Shown one piece after another: positions 43,074-57,227 of a stretch of DNA of 64,000 nucleotides. The stretch is from assembly GCA_029856145.1 (NCBI GenBank), contig JAHQWK010000004.1, forward strand, positions 128,001-192,000. The letters run 5' to 3'. How positions within the stretch are numbered: position 1 is the stretch's first letter; each line of letters begins with the position of its first letter. Source of the DNA: Promethearchaeia archaeon (GTDB taxonomy: Archaea; Asgardarchaeota; Lokiarchaeia; Sigyniarchaeales; SOKP01). Position numbers and translations under genes: made by a program. Under the pieces are notes generated by a model that worked only from the letters and a program-made list of their open reading frames with translations, was not told where the DNA came from and did no database searches.

Positions 43074-44120
43074 CTAAATAAGATTCTTTTTTTTTATAAT
43101 TTTATAATACTTATCACGTTCTTGGCGTATAAGTTTTATTTCTTCTCTTAAATCTGTTAATTCTCGTTTAATATTCTCCTTTTCATTATTTACACCCAAG
43201 ATCCTATCGTTCAATTTCTTAATTTCGATTTCTAAATTCGGAACTGATTCACTGTCTCTTTTTGCTTTTAGTACTTGAAATTTTAACTTTTTATTAGTTT
43301 CATTCAATTTTTCAATTTCATGATTTAAGGTATCGTTTTCCATCTTAATTTTTTTAATTTCTGTTAGTAGTTGTTCAGCACCTTTTTCGATTTCATCTGT
43401 ATCACCTAATTTTGCTTTTAAGTTATTAATTCGTTCATCTTTCTGGTCCAATGCTAATTTTTGTACATTTAATAATCTAGTTGATTCTCTATTTTTTGAT
43501 GTTAAAGTGGCGTTATATTCATTTAAATCTGCCATTTGGTTACTCCAATTTTCTAATTTTGAATATAATCCAGTTACCTCATTTTTTAAAGCTTCAACGT
43601 TTCTTAAATGTTCAGATCTGTCAGAAACTAACATAGAAACTTTTTGAGCAAGATCATTAATTTTTCCTTTCTTTTCTCCTATTTCTTGTTCAAATCCTCG
43701 TCTCTCTTGCCAATAGGCATCGAGTTCACCTTTTTCTAACAACTCGTAGGATTTTGCAAATAGTTCTTTAAACTTTTTTTCCTTTCTTTGAGGTAATAAT
43801 TCAAAAGCAATTCTTCGTACTTGACCCTCAAAATTTTTTGGAAGTATATCCTCATCAGAAAGGAATACTGTAATTACATGATCTCCCTTCCCAATAAAAT
43901 GCTTGGAAGAATGACCCGTAAAAAAACTAGCTACACTAAGATCACGCTTTATTTGCATTTCTAAATAATTGGAACCTGTCCTCACCCTCTTATGTTCCTC
44001 AAAAACAGTCGAAAGCATTGAATCTGTTACTCCTAATTCTTCACAGATATTTTGCGGATATTCAACATCTTTAGTTAATTCTGATTTCTTATCTAGATTT
44101 AAAATCACAATTCCTTTCAA
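43074..44120 (-). CDS. Longin-like domain plus long coiled coil
   Basis: 'KGIVILNLDKK.......EYP' start; heptad-rich C-terminal half. Confidence 0.6.
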   Translation of the reverse strand: MKGIVILNLDKKSELTKDVEYPQNICEELGVTDSMLSTVFEEHKRVRTGSNYLEMQIKRDLSVASFFTGHSSKHFIGKGDHVITVFLSDEDILPKNFEGQVRRIAFELLPQRKEKKFKELFAKSYELLEKGELDAYWQERRGFEQEIGEKKGKINDLAQKVSMLVSDRSEHLRNVEALKNEVTGLYSKLENWSNQMADLNEYNATLTSKNRESTRLLNVQKLALDQKDERINNLKAKLGDTDEIEKGAEQLLTEIKKIKMENDTLNHEIEKLNETNKKLKFQVLKAKRDSESVPNLEIEIKKLNDRILGVNNEKENIKRELTDLREEIKLIRQERDKYYKIIKKKNLI

Positions 44121-44265: not shown

Positions 44266-44634
44266 TTACTTTAAGTATGTGTTCACCAATTCTCTAAATT
44301 CATTAACTTTAATTGGTTTAGAGATATATTCATTAAATCCTGCTGATAAAATTCTATCTTTATCACCTTTCATTGCAAAGGAGGTTACTGCAATTATTGG
44401 TATTTCCCTAAATTTCTCAATATTTCGTAGTTCGGTACATATATCAATTCCACTCATTTCTGGAAGTTGGATATCTAAAATAACTAAATCAGGATTCCCA
44501 GTTTTTATTAGTTCTAATCCTAAATCTCCACGTGTTTCTTCAAAAATTTCAACATTCGGTATTAATTTTAAAATTGCTCTAAACAACTTCATGTTTTTTT
44601 CATTATCCTCAATAACATACACATTTCTAGTCAT
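44266..44634 (-). CDS. Single-domain response regulator (DivK-like)
   Basis: IEDN, LDIQLPEMSG, AVTSFAMKGD, ISKP. Confidence 0.95.
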   Translation of the reverse strand: MTRNVYVIEDNEKNMKLFRAILKLIPNVEIFEETRGDLGLELIKTGNPDLVILDIQLPEMSGIDICTELRNIEKFREIPIIAVTSFAMKGDKDRILSAGFNEYISKPIKVNEFRELVNTYLK

Positions 44635-44798: not shown

Positions 44799-46340
44799 TC
44801 ATGATATAAATTTTGCTTTTAATTCTTGAGCAACCTTAGCAATTTTTTTCAGTTCTTCAAAATCTTTCTCTATCATTGATTTCATTATGTCAATCTTGAG
44901 TTTTTTAACTTTTTCAAGGGTTACAGAAAATTCCTTGTTGATATCATCATAGAGTTCATCGATGTTGTTATAAAGAATCTGAGCATGTTCTTTATCCATA
45001 ATCTCAGAGTTAATAATCATGTTTTGATATGAATTATTTAATTCATCTAACCAATTCCTTCCGAGTTCCTTTATTGGGAAAAGATCATCGAGTTTACCCG
45101 TTCTAATCGCTATTTCAAACTTATCTCTATAGTTTTCAAATAACTTCTTAAAATAATTATTGATTTTATTTTCAATAGCTTTTAAGTTAATATTTGGGTT
45201 CATAAAAAGAGTCACTGTATAATTGTCATAACCAAATATATTCATTTTCAAATTACTCCCTTTTAAGCCAAAACCTGTTAAGTTTTGAATGTTTAATTCT
45301 AAGGAAAACTTTTCAAGTGCGCTAATAAACATTGGAATTAATTCAAGATCAACTGGAATTATTGTATCGTCATTTGGCATACTTTGAGAAATAAAGTCTT
45401 TAAGAGCATCATCAAATAATTCAAGCTTTATTAAAGATTTTCCATCCTTATCTGCTATTATTGCTCCTATAATTGACGGTACTACTTCCTTTATTGCTAA
45501 TTTAGTAGGGACTAAACGCCTTTCAGATTTATTAAAAGGAGCAGATGAAAAACTGCTTAATATCTTATTGTATATAACTTTACCTTTATTTGTCAAGCTA
45601 AGAAGGTCTTTATTCTCAACGTGCTTTATTTCAATATGCCCTTTGTTAGCGAGGCTTTCAACAAGATAATTAGTTAATTTTTTAGGATGGTTTAATTTTT
45701 CATGAAGATTTTCTTTAGTAATTACAACTTCTTTATCAATTTGATGTATAAGTTTAATTGATTCATCAACAATATTTAATAGTAAACCTTCATCATCGGG
45801 TATAATATCTTGAAGACAGATTTTCATAATATCAATCAAATTTGAAAAAGTCTGGGTAAAATAATCCCTTTTTAAACTTGTAAATAAAAAATTTATTAAA
45901 TTTTCATTTGGAAATTCAGTTTTGACAAGTGATTTGATTTCCCTAACTTTTTTTTCACTCACTAGATCTATTTTATGTAATAAAACAAAGATATATGTTG
46001 AAGGTGTTATGGTATTCCTTAAATCTATTATTTTTCTTACGAATTTAAAAATTTCATCATAACTAGACACAATATCTATTACAACTAAAATCAGTTTAGT
46101 GCCAATGAAAATTCTTTTTTCATCTGTATCAAGCCATCGCTTATTTTCTTGTCCTGCAAGATCAAATATACCAACGTCTTGATTTAAACTAGGCAATCTC
46201 ATTATTAATGATTCTTCACCGTAGGTTGGTTCTAATGCATATTCTAATAATTTTGTTGAACTTTCACCTTCAAAAAAGACCTTACGGAGCGTTGTTTTTC
46301 CTGCACCGGGAGGTCCTACAAAGATAATTTTTTCACTCAT
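44799..46340 (-). CDS. Rag/Gtr-like small GTPase plus winged helix plus roadblock/longin-like domain
   Basis: GPPGAGKT, EPT, DLAGQ, HKID, FTS; 'IIGAIIADKDGKSL'. Confidence 0.8.
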   Translation of the reverse strand: MSEKIIFVGPPGAGKTTLRKVFFEGESSTKLLEYALEPTYGEESLIMRLPSLNQDVGIFDLAGQENKRWLDTDEKRIFIGTKLILVVIDIVSSYDEIFKFVRKIIDLRNTITPSTYIFVLLHKIDLVSEKKVREIKSLVKTEFPNENLINFLFTSLKRDYFTQTFSNLIDIMKICLQDIIPDDEGLLLNIVDESIKLIHQIDKEVVITKENLHEKLNHPKKLTNYLVESLANKGHIEIKHVENKDLLSLTNKGKVIYNKILSSFSSAPFNKSERRLVPTKLAIKEVVPSIIGAIIADKDGKSLIKLELFDDALKDFISQSMPNDDTIIPVDLELIPMFISALEKFSLELNIQNLTGFGLKGSNLKMNIFGYDNYTVTLFMNPNINLKAIENKINNYFKKLFENYRDKFEIAIRTGKLDDLFPIKELGRNWLDELNNSYQNMIINSEIMDKEHAQILYNNIDELYDDINKEFSVTLEKVKKLKIDIMKSMIEKDFEELKKIAKVAQELKAKFIS

Positions 46341-47658
46341 TTTTATCAAGCAGTTTTTTTTTCAAATAGTAAACATTTTTTAGTTTTAATCTAATTTGAC
46401 CAATTATCCATATTAGTTTATTTGCACTAAGGGTCTCAGAAAGGCAAATTAAATTTTTAAGACTAAATTTTTTGTAATTCAAGCTATTCATAATGATATT
46501 AAAATTAGAACTTGAGAGGATTAAATGCTCAATTTTATCATTCATAGCCATGTTTTCAAAAGTTTTATTCAACTGTGTTATAAGTCTATGCGAATGATTA
46601 ATAATCACTGTATTAAAATCTTTAGACATCGATTGTACTATTATATTATCATTTAAGTTAGTTATAAAAAACATTGTTTTAGAAAAATCTCCAATTATAT
46701 CATCCAATATCTTTTTTAGATATATATTTTCTTTAGAAAAACCACTTAATAGTTCATAAAATGCGTTGTATAGGCTGTATATTAATTTTGGATAAATGCT
46801 TGTGTAATAAATAGAAATGTCAAATTTTCTTTTTATTTCATTAGTAATTTCCTTTAGAATCTTTCGTCTAGACTCCTTTCCAATCAGATCTATTTTATGA
46901 ATAAAAAGGATTACCTTGGCACTATAGGATTTATTAGTCATAATATCTCTAACTTTTTGGATATCATCTACAATTTGTTGGGAGTTAGAAACCCAAGTTG
47001 GATAATCGAATAGATATATAATAATATCAGTATTTTCAAATGCTAAGATATGATCACTATCATTTTCATTTTCCAGTAAATAACTTAACTCTTGTCCAGA
47101 AGAATCAAATAATCCTAATTTTAAATCCAACCATGAGTAGACAGATGGTGATATTCCACGTGTTGGTTCTAAAGGATTATATAATAAATCCTTGGGATTA
47201 TATCCTTCAAAAACAATTTTCTTAATACTTGTTTTTCCCGTACTAGCTCTTCCTATTAATAAGAATTTTTTTGTTGACGATTCTTCAAAAAAGGTGCCAA
47301 TTCTTTCCATAAAATATTTTTTTCTGTCATCCCTGGTTTTTTGTAAAGCTTTTTTTGAAAAATCAATAAATTTAGCTTTCAATGTATAAAGGTTAATCTT
47401 TTCCTTTTCATCAAGAATAATTACAAATATTTCATATCCTACATCCGTAACTTTAGATTTATCACAAAAACTCAGAATGGTTTGATCTTCATATGTAATC
47501 TCAATAATTTCGTCTTTAGTAAAATCTTCTTCATATGAATGAGTCATATATATTTTATTAATTAATTCATCTGTTAATTTTAAATCTAAAGGATATTTCA
47601 TCTCAAGTGTAGCACCCATCTTTGTATCCCAACTGAAGAATGCTAATCCTATAATCAT
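46333..47658 (-). CDS. Longin/uDENN-like plus Rag-like GTPase plus roadblock-like protein
   Basis: 'IGLAFFSWDTKMGATLEMKYP'; GRASTGKT, EPTRG, DSSGQ, HKID, TSIY; start set by AGGTGA RBS. Confidence 0.8.
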   Translation of the reverse strand: MIIGLAFFSWDTKMGATLEMKYPLDLKLTDELINKIYMTHSYEEDFTKDEIIEITYEDQTILSFCDKSKVTDVGYEIFVIILDEKEKINLYTLKAKFIDFSKKALQKTRDDRKKYFMERIGTFFEESSTKKFLLIGRASTGKTSIKKIVFEGYNPKDLLYNPLEPTRGISPSVYSWLDLKLGLFDSSGQELSYLLENENDSDHILAFENTDIIIYLFDYPTWVSNSQQIVDDIQKVRDIMTNKSYSAKVILFIHKIDLIGKESRRKILKEITNEIKRKFDISIYYTSIYPKLIYSLYNAFYELLSGFSKENIYLKKILDDIIGDFSKTMFFITNLNDNIIVQSMSKDFNTVIINHSHRLITQLNKTFENMAMNDKIEHLILSSSNFNIIMNSLNYKKFSLKNLICLSETLSANKLIWIIGQIRLKLKNVYYLKKKLLDKNE

Positions 47659-47668
47659 GTTTAAATTA

Positions 47669-49804
47669 TCACCTATTTTTTTCCTCAAATTTTTTAGATA
47701 TACTAAAAGTAAATGTAGATCCCATACCTAAAACACTTGTGAAGGTAATTTCACCACTATGTAATTCAATAAGCCTTTTAGTTAATGACAATCCGAGTCC
47801 AGTTCCAGGCACAGATCGTACATATGTGGAATTAACTCTTTTAAATTCTTTAAAGATTAAAGGAAAATCTTTGCGTGCTATTCCTATCCCTGTGTCTCTT
47901 ACTTTAAAAACCCATTGATTATACCCTTCTTTAACTATTAATTCAACTTGCCCTTCAATCGTAAATTTAATAGCATTACTTACCAAATTCAATAAAATTT
48001 CCTTAAATCTAATAGGATCAGCAAATATAAATTTTTCTTCTTTTAATCCTTTAATCTTGAATTTTAAATCTTTTTTACTATATAAAGGTTTTAGACTGGA
48101 TTTAATTTGATCTATCATAGGGTTCAAAGGAAACTTCTGAATATTTAAGGAGATCTGTCCAGATTCAATTTTAGAGATATCCAATATATGTTTGATCATA
48201 TCAAATTGATGTTCAGCCGAACTTTTAATATCTGTTATAAATTCCTTTTGTTCCTCATTCAATTGCCCATAAACTCCTTCTAAAAGCAAATCAGCGAATC
48301 CAATTATAGCATTCAACGGAGTTCTTAATTCATGCGACATAGTAGCCATAAATTCTGTTTTGAACTGTGATGATTTTACAATTTGATCTAAATAATATTT
48401 CTGTTGTTCAAGGGCTTCATTTAATTCTCTTGTTCGAATTTGAACTTCGGTTTCTAATTCATCTTTAAATTTATGTTCTAAAAGCTCTACCTTCTTTTTT
48501 TCAGTAATGTCTTCAAAAATCAGTTGAATTAAAGTTTTAGCATCCTGCTTTATGACAGATGCTTGAATTTCAACCCACAATAAATCTCCTTTAAAAGTTT
48601 TAACTTTGACTTCTATAGGTTCAGGAAAATCTTTTAAAAAAGAGGTTTTGAAAATTTGTTTAAAATATTTTTTAATTTCTATATGAAAAATATTATTATA
48701 AGCATCAATGGATTTTCCAATGATATCACTTCGATCCAAACCGAATAAAACTTCTGTTGTAGGATTAGAATCTACAATAATACCATTCAAATCAATAATA
48801 AATATTGCATTAGGAGAATTATCAAATAAAGCCTTATATCTCTCTTCAGCTAATTTGCGCTCATTAATATTCCTTGAAATTATCAAGCCTTTCAATTCTT
48901 TATCTCTATCAATAATAATCTGTCCACTACACTCAAACCAGAGCCAATATCCCTCCTTATGCTTAAATCGTAATTCAATCACAGATTCTCCTGGTTGAAA
49001 TCCTTTCTTAAAAGTATTAACGGCTCGTTCAACATCCTCCGGATGAATATATTCTAGAGCAGAGTTTCCTATAACATCCTTCTTTCGATATCCTAATAAT
49101 CTGAAGACAGTTTCTTCATTTAAATATTCGAATTTAATTTTACGGTCAATTATAACTATGAGATCATTAATGTTTTCAATAATAAGACGATATTTTTCTT
49201 CAGATTCTTTTAACAGATTTTCCATTTTACTTCGTTCTAAGGCATTTCCAATAATTTGTGATGATATGCGTAAAGGTGACAAATCACTCTCTTTCCATTC
49301 TTTTTGTATTGAATCATTTGCATACCCTATAAATCCAGCTAAATCTGTTTTAATATAAAGTGGGAATACTAATAAAGATCTAATATTATTAAGGTTCAAT
49401 AATCTTTTTGTAGCTTTAGCTTCATCTGGTAAACTTGAAGCATCATAAACATTAATTATATTTCCCCTTCTAAGTTGCTCGTTCCACCATGGAAAACTAT
49501 GAACCCATGAATTTTCAAAGTATTGAAATAGTGGATTTATTCCTTCTGTACACCATTCATATGTGTGATTTAAATTAATTCTGTTATCATTAAAAATACA
49601 CAAAACAACACGACTAGCTCCACTTAAAATTCCTATATCACGTAGTGTAGCATTAATTGCATCATTAATTTCTATATTTCCAAGAAAACGGGAGGATATT
49701 GTATAGGCTAAAACCTCTAAACTTGACCAGTTCTTAAATATTCTATCTGCTTCTTTAACTAAATTTTTTTCAGTCCCTGAAATTTCTTTTTCTCCTAAAA
49801 ACAC
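47669..49804 (-). CDS. Cytoplasmic GAF-PAS-PAS histidine kinase
   Basis: SHELRTPLN H-box; N, DTGIG and GTGLGL boxes. Confidence 0.95.
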   Translation of the reverse strand: MFLGEKEISGTEKNLVKEADRIFKNWSSLEVLAYTISSRFLGNIEINDAINATLRDIGILSGASRVVLCIFNDNRINLNHTYEWCTEGINPLFQYFENSWVHSFPWWNEQLRRGNIINVYDASSLPDEAKATKRLLNLNNIRSLLVFPLYIKTDLAGFIGYANDSIQKEWKESDLSPLRISSQIIGNALERSKMENLLKESEEKYRLIIENINDLIVIIDRKIKFEYLNEETVFRLLGYRKKDVIGNSALEYIHPEDVERAVNTFKKGFQPGESVIELRFKHKEGYWLWFECSGQIIIDRDKELKGLIISRNINERKLAEERYKALFDNSPNAIFIIDLNGIIVDSNPTTEVLFGLDRSDIIGKSIDAYNNIFHIEIKKYFKQIFKTSFLKDFPEPIEVKVKTFKGDLLWVEIQASVIKQDAKTLIQLIFEDITEKKKVELLEHKFKDELETEVQIRTRELNEALEQQKYYLDQIVKSSQFKTEFMATMSHELRTPLNAIIGFADLLLEGVYGQLNEEQKEFITDIKSSAEHQFDMIKHILDISKIESGQISLNIQKFPLNPMIDQIKSSLKPLYSKKDLKFKIKGLKEEKFIFADPIRFKEILLNLVSNAIKFTIEGQVELIVKEGYNQWVFKVRDTGIGIARKDFPLIFKEFKRVNSTYVRSVPGTGLGLSLTKRLIELHSGEITFTSVLGMGSTFTFSISKKFEEKNR

Positions 49805-49840: not shown

Positions 49841-52768
49841 TCATAAATATTTTAATAATTCTTCTACTCTAAGACTGTTTGTTATCTTTTTAGGGATATA
49901 AAAAGAAAATGTTGATCCCATCCCTAATTTACTTGTAAAAGAAATATTTCCACCATGTAAATTAATAATTCTCTTGGTTAGAGACAATCCTAAGCCTGAA
50001 CCTGGCATAGAATCAACATATGGAAATTTTACCCTTTTAAAATCTTTAAATATAATGTTAAGATCTTCTTTAGCAATTCCTATTCCTGTATCTTTTACAT
50101 TAAATTCCCAATTATCTTTTTTATCTATAAATTCAAATGTAACAGTCCCCCTTTCAGTAAACTTTATGGCATTACTTAGTAGATTATAAATAATTTGTTT
50201 AAATTTAAGTCGATCAGCTAATATAATCTGTTTTTTTTTCACATCTTTTAATTCAATCTTTAAATCCTTTTTGCTATATAGGGATTTTAAAGTTGAGATT
50301 ACTTGATTAACTAGATCATATAATTGGATATTGTCAATTTTTACAGAAACTTGCCCCGATTCAATCTTTGATATATCTAGGATATTTGATATCATATCCA
50401 ATAAATGTTTTGATGATTCTTCAATATCTTTAATGAATTCTAATTGTTCTGAATTTAATTGACCGTAAACTCCTTCCAGGAGCAAATCCGTAAAACCAAT
50501 AATGGCATTTAATGGGGTTCTTAATTCGTGAGACATAGTTGCTAAAAATTCTGTTTTAAAATGAGATGCTTTTAAAATCTGATCTAAATACAGTTTTTGT
50601 TGGTCAAGCGCAACTTTCAATTCTTTGGTTCTCAGTTTAACTTCCCTTTCTAATTCTTGACTAAACTTCTTTCTTAAAGCTTCTGCTCTCTTTCTTTCGC
50701 TGACATCCCGGAAAAAACCTTTAAAACCAATTATTTCTCCATTAGAATTATATCTTAAATATACAGAAGTTTCTTGATATATTCTGTCCCCATCTTTTCT
50801 TATAACTTGAGAATTAATTAATTTGAATCCTTCTCCTTTCTTATATAAATCATTATATACACGAAATACTCTCTCTTTGGTTTCTTCATCAAACACCATG
50901 CTATAACTCTTATTTAATAATTCTTCACGTGAATACCCGCTACTCTTACATAACGCATCATTGAAAAATGTGAAATTCCCTTCAAGATCAACTTCAAAAT
51001 ATCCTTCATTAATATTTTCAAGCACACTTCTATATTTTTCTTCTGACTCACTTAATTTTTGTTCAGCTTTCTTACGTTCGGTAACATCTACAAGTGCAGC
51101 CAAAATTGCGTCTTTTCCTTGATATTGGATAGTTTTAGAATAGGTGTCCATCCATTTTATTTCACCATTTTTAGTAAAAATCCTATACATTCTGTCGAAT
51201 TTCTCATCAATCAATCCTTTTTGTCTATGGCTCAATCGTTTTATAATAAGACCTCTATCCTCAGGATGAACAACATTGAGAAATTCTTTCATGGACCATT
51301 CTTTTATTTCTTTTTCAGAATATCCCAACATTTTCGTAATGGTTTTATTTATATATTGGATACTAGAATCCTTTATTATACAAATCCCCATAAAAGATTG
51401 TTCGGTGATCTCTCTAAAGTTTTCTTCAGATTCTTTTAAGCGTTGTTCTGATAATTTTCGCTCGGTTATATCTCTTGAGACTGTTATTGCTCTTAATTGA
51501 TCATCAGACCCCTTAAAGACTGATCCCGTTGTATCTACCCAGATATAATTTCCATTTCTGTGTCGAAGTCTTAATTCACCCCTTCCTCTGCCCCTTTTAA
51601 AACTCTCTCTTATTATTTTTAAAGCTCGCTTAATATCATCTGGATGGATAATATCATGTCGGGTCTTTCCTAACATATCTTTATTATTATATCCTAAAAT
51701 TCTTTGATATGTATTTTCATTTATATATTCATGTTCATATTTACTATTTAGAACCACAATTAAGTCATTGGCATTTTCAGTAATTAAACGATACTTCTCT
51801 TCTGATTCTTTTAACTTTTTTTCGATTTCAGCTTTTTCTGTAAGATCATTATAAATGGCAACAATCTCCCCAGAAGGAAGTTTATATACGTAGTTTTCCC
51901 TCCAACCAGCGATTCTCTCGTCCTGGTAAAGAGAAATAGGGTGATATAATGGTTCTCCTGTCTTCCACACCCTTTGAAAAACTTCAAAAAGACCAAATTC
52001 TTTTATACTTGGAAAGATTTTTGTGACTTTTTTACCAATAACCTCTTTTTTCTTAATCTTTTCTATTTTTTGAGCTGCTAAATTTAAATCTTTAAAAATA
52101 AAGGCTTCACCATTATGAATCGCCTTATATACTGCTACACCACTACTCATTGTGTTAAAAAGTTCTCGATATCTTTTTTCAGATTCTTTTAATATATCTT
52201 CAGTTAGTTTTCTCTCAATTGCGTTTCCAATTATTCGTGAAGAAATTTGCAATAGATTTAAATCCTCTTCTACCCAATTTCTCAACTCTAAATCATCATC
52301 GAATCCTATAAATCCTCCAATTTCACCATTGATATACAAAGGAATAGTTATGTTAGCTTTTACTCCATGATTTTTCAATAAATTTTTAATATTTTTAGCT
52401 TCTGGTGGAAGTCTTGAAACATCTTCAATAATTAGTGGGTTTCCTTTAAGAAGTTGTTTTATTACCCATGGAACTTCGTTCAATTGCAAGTGTTTATAAT
52501 CATTAATATGAGATTCTGCATTCACATTACACCATTCATGAGTATTTATCATATATGGTTTTTCTTTATTAAAGAGGAAAATGAAAACCCTACTGGCATG
52601 TATAAATTCCCCCATATCAGCAAGCGATTTATTTATAACTTTATCAAGTTCATAATTTCCAACAAATCGGGAAGAAATCGATGAAACTAGTTTCTCAAAC
52701 CTTAGTTTTCTTGTAATTGATATATCTTCTTTCACTTGTGTAGTTTTATCTCTCAAATTAGACACCAT
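49841..52768 (-). CDS. Cytoplasmic GAF-PAS(x4) histidine kinase
   Basis: SHELRTPLN, NAIKFT, DTGIG, GSGLGL; repeated HPD/ED and DITE. Confidence 0.95.
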   Translation of the reverse strand: MVSNLRDKTTQVKEDISITRKLRFEKLVSSISSRFVGNYELDKVINKSLADMGEFIHASRVFIFLFNKEKPYMINTHEWCNVNAESHINDYKHLQLNEVPWVIKQLLKGNPLIIEDVSRLPPEAKNIKNLLKNHGVKANITIPLYINGEIGGFIGFDDDLELRNWVEEDLNLLQISSRIIGNAIERKLTEDILKESEKRYRELFNTMSSGVAVYKAIHNGEAFIFKDLNLAAQKIEKIKKKEVIGKKVTKIFPSIKEFGLFEVFQRVWKTGEPLYHPISLYQDERIAGWRENYVYKLPSGEIVAIYNDLTEKAEIEKKLKESEEKYRLITENANDLIVVLNSKYEHEYINENTYQRILGYNNKDMLGKTRHDIIHPDDIKRALKIIRESFKRGRGRGELRLRHRNGNYIWVDTTGSVFKGSDDQLRAITVSRDITERKLSEQRLKESEENFREITEQSFMGICIIKDSSIQYINKTITKMLGYSEKEIKEWSMKEFLNVVHPEDRGLIIKRLSHRQKGLIDEKFDRMYRIFTKNGEIKWMDTYSKTIQYQGKDAILAALVDVTERKKAEQKLSESEEKYRSVLENINEGYFEVDLEGNFTFFNDALCKSSGYSREELLNKSYSMVFDEETKERVFRVYNDLYKKGEGFKLINSQVIRKDGDRIYQETSVYLRYNSNGEIIGFKGFFRDVSERKRAEALRKKFSQELEREVKLRTKELKVALDQQKLYLDQILKASHFKTEFLATMSHELRTPLNAIIGFTDLLLEGVYGQLNSEQLEFIKDIEESSKHLLDMISNILDISKIESGQVSVKIDNIQLYDLVNQVISTLKSLYSKKDLKIELKDVKKKQIILADRLKFKQIIYNLLSNAIKFTERGTVTFEFIDKKDNWEFNVKDTGIGIAKEDLNIIFKDFKRVKFPYVDSMPGSGLGLSLTKRIINLHGGNISFTSKLGMGSTFSFYIPKKITNSLRVEELLKYL

Positions 52769-52823: not shown

Positions 52824-53705
52824 TTAATCTTCTTTCTCCTTAAGATAGAGAAAAATATTAAAAAATTCAATCTCTTTATTGAAATGTGAATTTTCCATAT
52901 TAATACAATCTCTTTCTAATCCAATTTTAAAATAATATGCTCTATTAGTTAATTTAAAGAAGTCGTATTCATCAAAACTTTCTACAACACCTAATTTCTC
53001 TAACTCTTCTATATAGAGTTTGGCCTTTTTAGAATTGATTTTAAATTTTTGAGATACATCATCGATACTATACTTTACATTAATATCGGATTTTAATATC
53101 ATAGATAATTGGTTTTTCAGCTTTTGAAATTCTTCACTCTTGATTGGAATTTTATTTCTTTTAATAATTAAATTTAAAATTTCTGAAATTATACAAAAGG
53201 TATTATAAAAGTTGTCTTTTGTAATAGATGTTTGATATATCTCAAAATCCTTACCTTGTGGATGTTGAATTGTAATGAACTCTTGGATAGTCTTTAATTT
53301 ACTACATACATAGGCATTACTCCTAAGATCTATTTTATGTAAAAAAGCAATAATATTACATGAATGAAGGTGAAGATCTTTTTTCACTTTATATATATTG
53401 ATTAAAAATTTAATTATAGATTCTAATGAATTTCCAATGTCAAAAACACAAATTATGATATTACTTTCACTAAATACATCTTTCCCTTTATCTGAAAACC
53501 AAGTTTCATTTTCTTGTCCTGCTAAATCAAAGACTCCTAAATCAGTATTAGATGTTGTATAAATTCTAGAGCTAATCCCTCTTGATGGTTGCAAAGGTTC
53601 TTCTAAAAGTGAAATTGGGCTCACTTGATCGAAATAGACTTTCTGGAGTGTTGTTTTTCCTACTCCAGATGGACCAACAAGAACAATTTTTTTTCTACTT
53701 ATCAA
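52824..53705 (-). CDS. Rag/Gtr-like small GTPase plus C-terminal winged helix
   Basis: GPSGVGKT, QPSRG, DLAGQ, HKID, TSI. Confidence 0.8.
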   Translation of the reverse strand: MISRKKIVLVGPSGVGKTTLQKVYFDQVSPISLLEEPLQPSRGISSRIYTTSNTDLGVFDLAGQENETWFSDKGKDVFSESNIIICVFDIGNSLESIIKFLINIYKVKKDLHLHSCNIIAFLHKIDLRSNAYVCSKLKTIQEFITIQHPQGKDFEIYQTSITKDNFYNTFCIISEILNLIIKRNKIPIKSEEFQKLKNQLSMILKSDINVKYSIDDVSQKFKINSKKAKLYIEELEKLGVVESFDEYDFFKLTNRAYYFKIGLERDCINMENSHFNKEIEFFNIFLYLKEKED

Positions 53706-53740: not shown

Positions 53741-54424
53741 TTATTGCATGGAATTTTTTAGATATTTTTCTAGAGATATAATTATATCTTTACATGATTC
53801 TAACATCATTTCTATAAAATTTATTAAATTCTCATTTGATAGACTTTTATTTTCCTTTTTATCTTCTAAAATTAAATCACAAAATCCTTGAATTGTATTA
53901 ATACCACTACGAATTTGTAGATTAAATCTTTCTAATGGAAGAATTTCATTTTTTTTTATATAGATATAGCTTAATTCTTTAAAAAAACTCTCAAATACAT
54001 TTTTATCATCTGATAATATTTTATCTTCACCAATTTTACGAAACATCATTTCAATTTTTCTAAAATGTATTATAGGAATTAAAGGATATTCGATATCACG
54101 AAGTAAAATGATAGAATATAATTGCTTTCCACCTCGAGCATTATTATCTTCGACTTCGATTTTATAGATTTGAGAATAGAAATAATTAAAATCTAAAATT
54201 ACAAATTGATTTTTTGTATTTAAAGCATCTCTTAGAAGATTTCTAATAAAATGTTTCTGTCTTTCAATATTGACTGACGTGTATATAGCTCTTGGTCCTA
54301 GGGTATGATCATATTTACCAATAATTATTATGAAAGGATTTTTTTCTAAAATTGATTGAAAATTCTTATAAGTATCCGAAATTTCATTTTCTATGGATTC
54401 TTTTGTTAAATTTTTTTCTATCAT
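53741..54424 (-). CDS. Longin/uDENN-like domain fused to a degenerate HisKA (DHp) helix pair
   Basis: 'IIIIGKYDHTLGPRAIY'; 'NLQIRSGINTIQGFCDLIL'. Confidence 0.6.
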   Translation of the reverse strand: MIEKNLTKESIENEISDTYKNFQSILEKNPFIIIIGKYDHTLGPRAIYTSVNIERQKHFIRNLLRDALNTKNQFVILDFNYFYSQIYKIEVEDNNARGGKQLYSIILLRDIEYPLIPIIHFRKIEMMFRKIGEDKILSDDKNVFESFFKELSYIYIKKNEILPLERFNLQIRSGINTIQGFCDLILEDKKENKSLSNENLINFIEMMLESCKDIIISLEKYLKNSMQ

Positions 54425-54658: not shown

Positions 54659-56158
54659 ATGTCAGAATCTGCAAAAACAATCATAAAATATTTCTGTGAT
54701 CGATTTCTTGACTTAGATTATTATCCAACTAATTTAAAAACCATATTAGATTTGGAATTAGATAAATTACGAAGTATAAAAGATGATGAAATAGAGAAAT
54801 TTAAAAAAATCGATATCGTGAGTCTACGCGACCTTACTAAACTAGAGGATTATGGATTTGAAAATTTGATTGAAAAACTGCATATTGAAAAATCAACTAT
54901 AAAAAATGCTCTTATCGCATCAACTCTTATATCTAACGCTTGGAATAAAAGGAATTTATATCTGAAAAAACAAAAATTGAAGGTTGTAGTGGCTGGTCTT
55001 GATTTCGCGGGTAAAACATCTCTCATAAATAGATTGATTAATGATTATAATTATAATGATATGGCTAATCTAGAACCCACAATAGGAGCAAATGTAGAGG
55101 AATATCAATCTGATAAATTAGATTTAATTCTCTGGGACCTTGGAGGACAGAAAGATCATGTAGACGAATATCTTGCTTCTCCAGAAAGTTTTTTTATAAA
55201 CGTAGATATCATGATATTTGTAATTGATTCACAAGATGATGTTAGATATTTAGAAGCTGTAAACTTTTTGAATGATATAATTGATATTCTCAAATTCTTG
55301 AAAGAGAATCCTTTTATTGTAGTTTTATTGAATAAAGCAGATTTAGATATCAGAAAAGATCCTGATTTTCAAATTAAGCTTGAATATCTAGCAGATAAAA
55401 TTTCAGAGATTTTTAAAAAATCTGAAAATCCTTGGAATTTTGAGATCATTCCCACAAGTATTTATAATTATTATTCTAATCAACCAGAAATAGTTAAAAG
55501 TATTAAAAATATCTTTTCAAAAGGAAAAGAGGAGACAGATAAAGAGATTGTGATACCTGACATTGAAGAAAAATTTCAGAAAATTTTAGATCTTAATCTG
55601 AAATTGATGGATAAATTCGTATCTGAGCTTGCGGAAATTAAACGAGCTTTACTACGATTAAATCCATCAGATATAACTCAATCTCTTTTTTCAGTTCCTT
55701 TCAAAAAAGTACAACCAGATTATATATCTCCAGACTTAAAATCAAATGGAAAAAGTAAAAAAAAGAAGAAGAAAGCTAAAATTGATGAATTTCAAAAAAA
55801 GAAAAAAACTAAAAAAGGTTCAGGACCTCCAAAACCACTGCCAACACACCCTTCTTTAAAAATAGAAGAAGAAAAAATAGTTAAAAACGAAAAACTCACA
55901 ACTAAGAAATTAGAAAAAGTTAAATCTTCTTTAAAATCAAAATCTCAATTATCTAAGATGTCATCTAGTCCACCAACAGCTCCACTAACAACACCTAAAC
56001 AGGATGAAATCAACTTAAATTCGCTTAAACCTCCACCTCCCCCTCCAAGAATTTCAACAAGTGGCAATATTAGATCAACCTCACCTAGAGGTGAAGTCCT
56101 TTCAGAATTAAAAGAAATGTTCTTGAAGCGAGGCTTAGTCAATCGTTATGACTTCTAA
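54659..56158 (+). CDS. Arf-like small GTPase with N-terminal HhH-like domain and basic/polyproline C-tail
   Basis: GLDFAGKT, EPTIG, WDLGGQ, NKAD. Confidence 0.85.
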   Translation: MSESAKTIIKYFCDRFLDLDYYPTNLKTILDLELDKLRSIKDDEIEKFKKIDIVSLRDLTKLEDYGFENLIEKLHIEKSTIKNALIASTLISNAWNKRNLYLKKQKLKVVVAGLDFAGKTSLINRLINDYNYNDMANLEPTIGANVEEYQSDKLDLILWDLGGQKDHVDEYLASPESFFINVDIMIFVIDSQDDVRYLEAVNFLNDIIDILKFLKENPFIVVLLNKADLDIRKDPDFQIKLEYLADKISEIFKKSENPWNFEIIPTSIYNYYSNQPEIVKSIKNIFSKGKEETDKEIVIPDIEEKFQKILDLNLKLMDKFVSELAEIKRALLRLNPSDITQSLFSVPFKKVQPDYISPDLKSNGKSKKKKKKAKIDEFQKKKKTKKGSGPPKPLPTHPSLKIEEEKIVKNEKLTTKKLEKVKSSLKSKSQLSKMSSSPPTAPLTTPKQDEINLNSLKPPPPPPRISTSGNIRSTSPRGEVLSELKEMFLKRGLVNRYDF

Positions 56159-56363: not shown

Positions 56364-57227
56364 ATGTCGAATAGTGACAAAAAAACAAAGGAAATGGAAC
56401 AATATGAGCAAGAGACTGGAAAACAAGCAATTTGGCAGGGAAAAACCACTAAGGGATTCCTAAGATGGAAAAAAGGTGAAAAAAATTATTATGCTGATAA
56501 AAAAAGAATTTCCGTTTATGTATCAAGTGAAACTGAAAGGAATTGGAAGGAATATATTAACACACATAAAATTACTTCATTTTCTAAACTAATTAGAGAA
56601 AGCGTTAATTATTATATTAAAGAAAGATCTAAATTTGGTGGAAATTTATTTCCGGATTTAGAAACTAGTACTAAATCTAAAATGACTCACACTTTGAAAG
56701 AAAAGCTAACAACGATAAAAGGATTTTCGCAATTATTACTTGAAAAATATAGTGGGAATTTAAATGATGAAATAAAAACGATTATTAATAATGTCTTGAA
56801 GGAAACTAAACAATTGGAAAATAAATTCATAGTTCAATTAGAAGAAAAAGAATTTAAACCTTCACAATATGATATTTTACTCATTGAAGATAATTTGTCT
56901 ACTATAGATTTATTGAAAAATTATTTTGAAAGCAAGGGGTATTCTTTTAAAGGAGTATTAACAGGTTTGGAAGGAATTGAAGAACTATCCTCGTCTACTC
57001 CAAAATTAATATTGCTGGATATAATTTTACCAGATGTTAGTGGATATGATATTTGTAAGGACATAAAATCTAATATGAATTTAAAAGAAATACCTGTATT
57101 TTACTTAACTGCTTTACCCGGTATTAACGTAGAGAATAAAATAGAAGAAACAATGGCAGATGGTTTTATTTTAAAACCTTTTGATTTACTAGATTTAGAA
57201 TTTTTATTTGATTATCTCCAAACTTAG
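56364..57227 (+). CDS. RHH-like plus DHp plus receiver hybrid response regulator
   Basis: RISVYVS...FSKLIRESV; THTLKEKLTTIKGF; IEDN, LLDIILP, ILKP. Confidence 0.8.
   Translation: MSNSDKKTKEMEQYEQETGKQAIWQGKTTKGFLRWKKGEKNYYADKKRISVYVSSETERNWKEYINTHKITSFSKLIRESVNYYIKERSKFGGNLFPDLETSTKSKMTHTLKEKLTTIKGFSQLLLEKYSGNLNDEIKTIINNVLKETKQLENKFIVQLEEKEFKPSQYDILLIEDNLSTIDLLKNYFESKGYSFKGVLTGLEGIEELSSSTPKLILLDIILPDVSGYDICKDIKSNMNLKEIPVFYLTALPGINVENKIEETMADGFILKPFDLLDLEFLFDYLQT

Follow-up and report, generated by a model that had tools for sequence, protein, structure and literature searches.

What might a protein do that joins a longin domain to a His-less DHp hairpin? The question is raised by a gene of a Loki-type Asgard archaeon that lies among Rag-like and Arf-like GTPases, two sensor histidine kinases and a single-domain receiver, in the 64,000-nucleotide stretch of DNA analysed here (the window). 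Its product, which we call the longin-DHp protein, may act as a DivL-like sensor, responding to the phosphorylated receiver by regulating a longin GAP for the Rag/Arf-like GTPases of this island, a reading to which we give a probability of roughly 0.35.

A conserved gene heads an island of GTPase and two-component genes

The longin-DHp gene starts with ATG and encodes 227 amino acids. It has 283 relatives, the named ones all carrying Promethearchaeota or related Asgard labels, and against three orthologues its dN is about 0.10–0.17 versus a dS of 0.7–1.0, which indicates purifying selection. With relatives and a dN far below dS, the ORF is therefore a real gene. A search of its own genome for a second copy returned no paralogue, making it single-copy. 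As the initial annotation stated, the gene is the first of a minus-strand run; it is followed, 35 bp downstream, by a Rag-like GTPase, then by two kinases, two further Rag-like GTPases, a receiver and a coiled-coil protein. A divergent Arf-like GTPase gene lies 234 bp away. The island comprises:

53741..54424, minus strand: longin-DHp protein gene (ORF, relatives, AF2 model, dN/dS)
54659..56158, plus strand: Arf-like GTPase, divergently transcribed, candidate substrate (Arf E 4.5e-23; divergent neighbour in 21 of 37 loci)
52824..53705, minus strand: Rag-like GTPase, 293 aa, directly downstream, candidate substrate (Gtr1_RagA E 1.7e-15; next gene in 23 of 37 loci)
49841..52768, minus strand: GAF-PAS sensor histidine kinase, 975 aa, whose helix-1 docking face equals that of the pseudo-DHp
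47669..49804, minus strand: GAF-PAS sensor histidine kinase, 711 aa, with the same helix-1 docking face
46333..47688, minus strand: Rag-like GTPase, 451 aa, with an N-terminal longin-like region lacking GP motif and finger; candidate substrate or non-catalytic partner
44799..46349, minus strand: Rag-like GTPase, 516 aa, candidate substrate
44266..44634, minus strand: single-domain receiver, 122 aa, with DivK as closest solved relative; candidate ligand of the pseudo-DHp

The P-loop, the DxxGQ motif with its Gln, and [HN]KxD are intact in all five island GTPases. At the switch I Thr position the 293-aa protein has Ser and the other island GTPases have Thr, and the Arf-like protein carries a long Lys-rich and Pro-rich C-terminal tail. 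The longin identity of the 451-aa GTPase N-terminus was judged by eye, and an hhalign comparison of this region with the longin-DHp family returned nothing. The last gene of the run (43074–44120, minus strand) encodes a small N-terminal alpha/beta region and then a long coiled coil, with no Pfam family above cut-off. On the plus strand, at 56364–57227, the window also encodes a protein with an RHH-like region, a DHp that keeps its His and a receiver, and without an ATPase domain; at least three more proteins of this type occur in the genome (C18 twice, C19 once), and in locus L077 the His is Tyr. A promoter scan gave hits at chance level (17 versus 17.5 expected) with a bacterial model.

The N-terminal half is a longin domain of the FLCN/NPRL2 type

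The AF2 model of the longin-DHp protein, at a mean pLDDT of 83, places a five-stranded longin domain at residues 29–160 and two long helices after it. Three features of this half matter here:

53945..54340, minus strand: FLCN/NPRL2-type longin domain, residues 29–160 (AF2, Pfam, fold searches)
54293..54313, minus strand: Tyr38-Asp39-x3-Gly43-Pro44, the GP motif of longin GAPs (invariant in 121 relatives)
54134..54136, minus strand: Arg97, candidate arginine finger in the beta4-beta5 loop, D-x-x-A-R-G (121 of 121 relatives)

The best VIA fold match is chain 8fw5_B of the GATOR1 complex (Z 11.6, rmsd 3.0, 131 aligned residues), followed by 6nzd_H of the FLCN complex (Z 11.2, rmsd 2.8, 129 aligned) and the Lokiarchaeal longin 8yqg_B (Z 11.2). 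These top matches all cover residues ~29–160 and, at Z 10.9–11.6, are tied between GATOR1/SEA, FLCN and Lokiarchaeal longins. Foldseek likewise ranks GATOR1/SEA chains at the top (E 1e-4), and the structure atlas returns NPR2, SMCR8 and Asgard Folliculin-like clusters. At the sequence level, every one of 89 relatives has a Pfam Folliculin match with E ≤ 0.1; for the longin-DHp protein itself PF11704 scores 20.5 bits (22.2 for the segment), under the curated cut-off of 23.3, which counts against a GAP reading. Pfam gave no NPR2 match. FLCN, SMCR8 and NPRL2 stayed out of reach of PDB sequence searches, whose matches to CheY and dopachrome isomerase (E 0.05–0.8) were dismissed as chance.

The initial annotation had called this N-terminus longin/uDENN-like and GEF/GAP-like, on the strength of a motif that is indeed present, at residues 32–48. 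The AF2 model and both fold searches bear out the longin; the uDENN part narrows to the FLCN/SMCR8/NPRL2 GAP type, on the GP motif and the candidate finger, the latter being absent from the annotation.

A GP motif and an invariant arginine suggest a GAP

The GP motif stands before strand 2, and Asp93-x-x-Ala-Arg97-Gly is invariant across the 121 relatives. In silico replacement of Arg97 by Ala lowered the Folliculin score from 22.2 to 16.7 bits, a loss of 5.5, whereas changing two other basic residues as controls cost nothing (22.7 bits). Arg97 therefore coincides with an Arg that the Folliculin model conserves strongly, and on this profile test we take it to be the putative equivalent of FLCN Arg164. 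FLCN Arg164 is a proven arginine finger (PMC9473554). In GAP longins the GP motif lies adjacent to the arginine finger and is reported to be specific to that class, and the Trp33-Asp34-x3-Gly38-Pro39 of C9orf72 has the same spacing as the motif described here (PMC12290439). Some Asgard longins have been noted to carry both GP motif and finger, with GAP activity raised as a possibility (PMC12290439); in the literature we consulted on the topic, we found no Asgard longin shown to be a GAP.

Because it combines the GP motif with an invariant Arg97 at the conserved Arg of the Folliculin model, the longin resembles a GAP more than it does a DENN-type GEF. GAP activity through Arg97 itself would, on these comparisons, come close to an even chance without quite reaching it. 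The contrary idea, a DENN-type GEF or a non-catalytic GTPase platform in which Arg97 is structural, draws on the fact that GEFs and platforms make up the majority of longin dimers (PMC10933270), and Mon1-Ccz1, TRAPP and adaptin longins do appear further down the fold list. The GP motif, however, is reported to be absent from DENND and other non-GAP longins (PMC12290439), GAP-type longins rank first in the fold searches, and no cDENN/dDENN lobe follows the longin, as only two helices lie past residue 160 in the AF2 model. We consider a GEF or platform very improbable.

The C-terminal half derives from a DHp hairpin

Two features define the second half of the protein:

53747..53944, minus strand: DHp-derived helical hairpin, residues 161–226, without an ATPase domain (AF2, HMM, hhalign, Pfam)
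53918..53920, minus strand: Leu169 at the phospho-His position (Leu in 94 and Met in 26 of 121 relatives)

The initial annotation had read this half as a DHp without its His and without an ATPase domain, and both points hold. The motif it quoted lies at residues 167–187, and hhalign of the hairpin to the kinase DHp (P 7e-6) puts Leu169 in register with the His. An HMM of the island-kinase DHp reaches the longin-DHp protein at E 0.0057 among 5571 ORFs; it scores 117 of the 121 relatives and none of their reversed sequences. Pfam HisKA matches 27 of 89 relatives, weakly, with a best E of 0.0021. Compared by fold, the hairpin aligns with HK853 (5uht_A; Z 8.6, rmsd 1.9, 67 aligned residues) in a tie with unrelated hairpins, and matches to CorA and to designed hairpins were rejected as generic helical hairpins. 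Since the fold alone is unspecific, DHp ancestry rests on the agreeing sequence tests. Independent support comes from divergent relatives: Leu or Met occupies the His position in 120 of 121 close relatives, and four divergent ones (P0141, L032:720–1403, P0128 and P0132) keep the His. Neither Pfam nor the AF2 model contains a HATPase_c domain, the protein ending past the second helix, and a weak test for a longer fused form with a full kinase found none.

Within the hairpin, conservation is highest at the surface positions of helix 1, with a dN of 0.04–0.06 in two of three comparisons. This bears on whether the hairpin is simply a dimerisation module borrowed from a kinase, making no receiver contact and serving a GAP that is constitutive or otherwise regulated. 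Eukaryotic longin GAPs act as dimers and need a longin-longin pair cupping the GTPase (PMC8213707); one protomer here has both a C9orf72-like YD-x3-GP and an SMCR8/FLCN-like Arg, so a homodimer could give both halves, and longin-only relatives exist that keep GP and ARG without a hairpin. The conservation of the helix-1 surface nevertheless goes beyond what dimerisation needs, and we think a pure dimer module unlikely.

The hairpin-less relatives are stand-alone longins of 169–184 aa (L033, L034, L070 and L072, family f2) that have GP and D-x-x-A-R-G and sit in unrelated gene contexts.

The helix-1 face matches that of the island kinases and may dock a receiver

In HisKA-receiver complexes, helix-1 positions H+3, +7, +11, +12, +14, +15 and +18 contact the receiver. 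In the longin-DHp protein these are R, N, G, F, D, L and E; among the genome's 19 other DHp proteins this set is identical in the two island kinases and occurs in none of the other 17. The H+3 Arg (R172) is invariant in relatives. Wherever a larger His-less locus includes a kinase H-box, a kinase of the island docking-face type is present, and the faces of pseudo-DHp and kinase are both nearly constant across loci. The matching residues could also be inherited from a neighbouring kinase, which counts against the docking inference.

The island receiver finds its best solved-structure match in DivK (E 6e-27). In Caulobacter, the R553A change at the H+3 Arg of DivL abolishes binding of DivK~P, and DivL is a sensor rather than a kinase or phosphatase (PMC4211667). 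A complex model of two longin-DHp copies with the receiver reached a score of 0.49, while the best of its three controls stayed at 0.00; contacts agree between runs to at least 90%, and the partner has a pLDDT of at least 81. In calibration, 58 of 80 solved pairs reached the mark, as did 2 of 110 mismatched pairs; at scores of ≤0.60 only 7 solved pairs and both mismatches did. The model thus lends docking weak support, and its score may come from resemblance to solved complexes of kinases with receivers. On the conserved docking face, the co-occurrence of a DivK-like receiver (below) and this model, we judge docking of the receiver on the pseudo-DHp slightly better than even. The initial annotation had suggested that the protein could dock receivers and so physically link a GEF/GAP-like fold to the two-component system; a link to the two-component genes is well supported by gene context, and a physical one through docking is modelled only weakly.

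The same annotation also suggested dimerisation with the kinases. In that arrangement the hairpin would form mixed four-helix bundles with the island kinases, inhibiting or tethering them, as might be expected from a helix 1 that is 9/19 identical to both and from genes co-oriented in one run. The kinases, however, vary in number and sensor domains and are not one-to-one neighbours, whereas the receiver is constant. Receiver docking has the better evidence, and we rate a kinase heterodimer as improbable.

A further alternative concerns direction. The longin could bind a GTPase as effector or scaffold, with the pseudo-DHp relaying its state by sequestering or dephosphorylating the receiver. The docking face, receiver co-occurrence and complex model fit this equally, and the input of normal kinases is the domain N-terminal to the DHp. 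Thr or Asn at H+4 serves phosphatase activity in HisKA kinases; position H+4 is Ser or Thr in 121 of 121 relatives, and Ser173 of the longin-DHp protein could do likewise. Set against this, one divergent relative has Gly in place of that Ser, a pure sensor needs no invariant Arg at the finger position, and DivL is without phosphatase activity (PMC4211667). We hold this GTPase-to-kinase direction to be rather unlikely, and prefer a pseudo-DHp that senses the receiver and controls the longin.

The island behaves as one module

The longin-DHp gene is patchy within its genus (5 of 24 genomes by a single query), and full-length matches occur in three families of the order. For co-occurrence we compared 22 carriers (one of them, G067, with an internal stop) with 22 non-carriers at least 91% complete; the genomes are related to one another, and the E thresholds are of our own choosing. 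The DivK-like receiver was found in 22/22 carriers and 0/22 non-carriers. Non-carriers were equally empty (0/22 each) of the 451-aa GTPase N-terminus, present in 21/22 carriers (E ≤ 1e-34), the 516-aa GTPase in 20/22 (E ≤ 1e-60), the Arf-like orthologue in 19/22 (E ≤ 1e-60) and the 293-aa GTPase in 16/22 (E ≤ 1e-50). In genome G024 (L031:12000–13700) the longin-DHp gene and its flanking Rag-like and Arf-like genes are truncated together.

The island set hence behaves as one module, gained or lost whole. Given this linkage and the kinship of the genomes, the counts cannot single out a binding partner, and GTPases and their regulators are in general hard to pair from gene layout (PMC10933270). 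Decayed longin-DHp copies were seen in G024 and in G133 (L075:6050–6358), and the receiver was found in neither genome.

Divergent relatives vary the histidine, the finger and the attached domains

Among the four divergent relatives that keep the H-box His, P0141 (L084:8001–8582) and L032:720–1403 also keep the GP motif and the Arg-Gly loop, lack an ATPase domain and lie directly upstream of a single-domain receiver. P0141 and its downstream receiver sit among four Rag/Arf-like GTPases and a hybrid kinase; L032:720–1403 matches HisKA at E 1.8e-5. By sequence, this pair is a possible phosphorylatable form of the same regulator. The other two, P0128 (L030:1902–2528) and P0132 (L087:8001–8585), have lost the finger Arg and lie between receiver-kinase genes, P0132 among kinases and GTPases. 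In the tree, one His-bearing pair falls outside the main group (92/86) and the other is nested inside it on long branches; in this tree, whose bootstrap had not settled, the His may have been lost once or more than once.

Further variants change what is attached to the longin. L064:683–1849, P0134 and P0135 have a PAS-like domain N-terminal to the longin, an Arg-Gly loop, a degraded hairpin and an adjoining GTPase, and are possibly a directly sensing form. In L065, L066, L068, L069 and L071, of about 345 aa, a GP/ARG longin is fused to a degenerate P-loop GTPase domain, an arrangement that could possibly act as a GAP in cis.

A proposed path from receiver to GTPase

In the mechanism we favour, the longin-DHp protein would dimerise through its DHp hairpin, and the two island kinases would phosphorylate the DivK-like receiver, which would then dock on helix 1 of the His-less DHp. 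Unable to take the phosphate, the pseudo-DHp would read the state of the receiver as Caulobacter DivL reads DivK~P. Docking would alter the way in which the longin domains offer Arg97 to at least one Rag-like or Arf-like GTPase of the island, and GTP hydrolysis would be sped up or permitted as a result. Either the other protomer or the N-terminus of the 451-aa GTPase, which has no finger, could serve as the second longin of the dimer.

The best fold matches to NPRL2 and FLCN, the invariant motifs, the docking face, the co-occurrence and the joint truncation in G024 support this DivL-like sensor. Several observations weigh against it. DivL owes its phospho-selectivity to PAS domains (PMC4211667), and the longin-DHp protein has none. 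Longins tethered through a DHp may be unable to form the longin-longin dimer that eukaryotic longin GAPs need. The GAP half has to accommodate the loss of the finger Arg in P0128 and P0132, and a downstream GTPase that has the switch I Ser and occurs in only 16 of 22 carriers. That receiver docking and GAP activity through Arg97 both hold is a tentative proposal. We favour the DivL-like sensor with a longin GAP over, in falling order of probability, the GTPase-to-kinase direction, the dimer module, the kinase heterodimer and the GEF or platform. A protein that wires a bacterial-style phosphorelay to eukaryote-style GTPase switches is plausible.

Comparison with known systems

By its defining architecture, the longin-DHp protein is outside FLCN, DENN proteins, HisKA kinases and DivL. 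FLCN-FNIP2 is a GAP for RagC/D and C9orf72-SMCR8 one for Arf. With FLCN and SMCR8 it shares the longin fold, the GP motif, an Arg in the equivalent loop by the profile test, and Rag/Arf-like likely partners; it differs in having a DHp-derived hairpin instead of a DENN lobe, and its heterodimer partner is only a candidate. NPRL2 of GATOR1 gives the highest fold score, tied with FLCN, and has the GP motif, but the longin-DHp protein lacks an NPR2 Pfam match and the C-terminal domains of NPRL2, and its finger loop is FLCN/SMCR8-like.

With the DivL/DivK pair of Caulobacter it has in common a non-His residue at the phospho site, Arg at H+3, a DivK-like receiver and neighbouring kinases with a PleC/DivJ-like H-box (PMC4211667). 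DivL, by contrast, has PAS and CA domains and a Tyr at the site and acts on CckA, whereas the longin-DHp protein has neither PAS nor CA and carries a longin. The resemblance is one of analogy, not orthology. The protein plausibly works like an FLCN-type GAP combined with a DivL-type sensor. A fuller conjecture, which we think rather unlikely, is that it is a prokaryotic folliculin-type arginine-finger GAP acting on a Rag/Arf-like GTPase and switched by a phosphorylated DivK-like receiver on its His-less DHp; that it derives from a His-bearing longin-DHp phosphoacceptor surviving in a few lineages; and that its homodimer would be a symmetric precursor of the heterodimers FLCN-FNIP and C9orf72-SMCR8.

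The text of a 2020 preprint reports many Asgard fusions of NPRL2-like longins to two-component domains and surmises such wiring (bioRxiv 10.1101/2020.10.19.343400). Those fusions, together with the GP/Arg-finger longins published in 2025 (PMC12290439), form the general class that includes the longin-DHp protein. The texts of these two sources leave the His-less DHp fusion, the DivK-like receiver and the island unnamed; Fig. 5c of the 2020 paper may draw the architecture. Literature searches combining Asgard with histidine kinase and longin, or with DivK, found no paper, within coverage that included few subscription journals. The general fusion class and the Asgard finger longins were already published; to these the present analysis adds the His-bearing relatives, the match of docking faces, and the co-occurrence and complex model of the receiver. 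Encoded together in the conserved island are a candidate GAP that is small and soluble, five GTPases that could be its substrates, two kinases and a single receiver. The island thereby makes testable, with six or seven purified proteins, the surmise in the 2020 text that the place now taken by mTOR, upstream of or around the Rag switches, was once filled by two-component systems.
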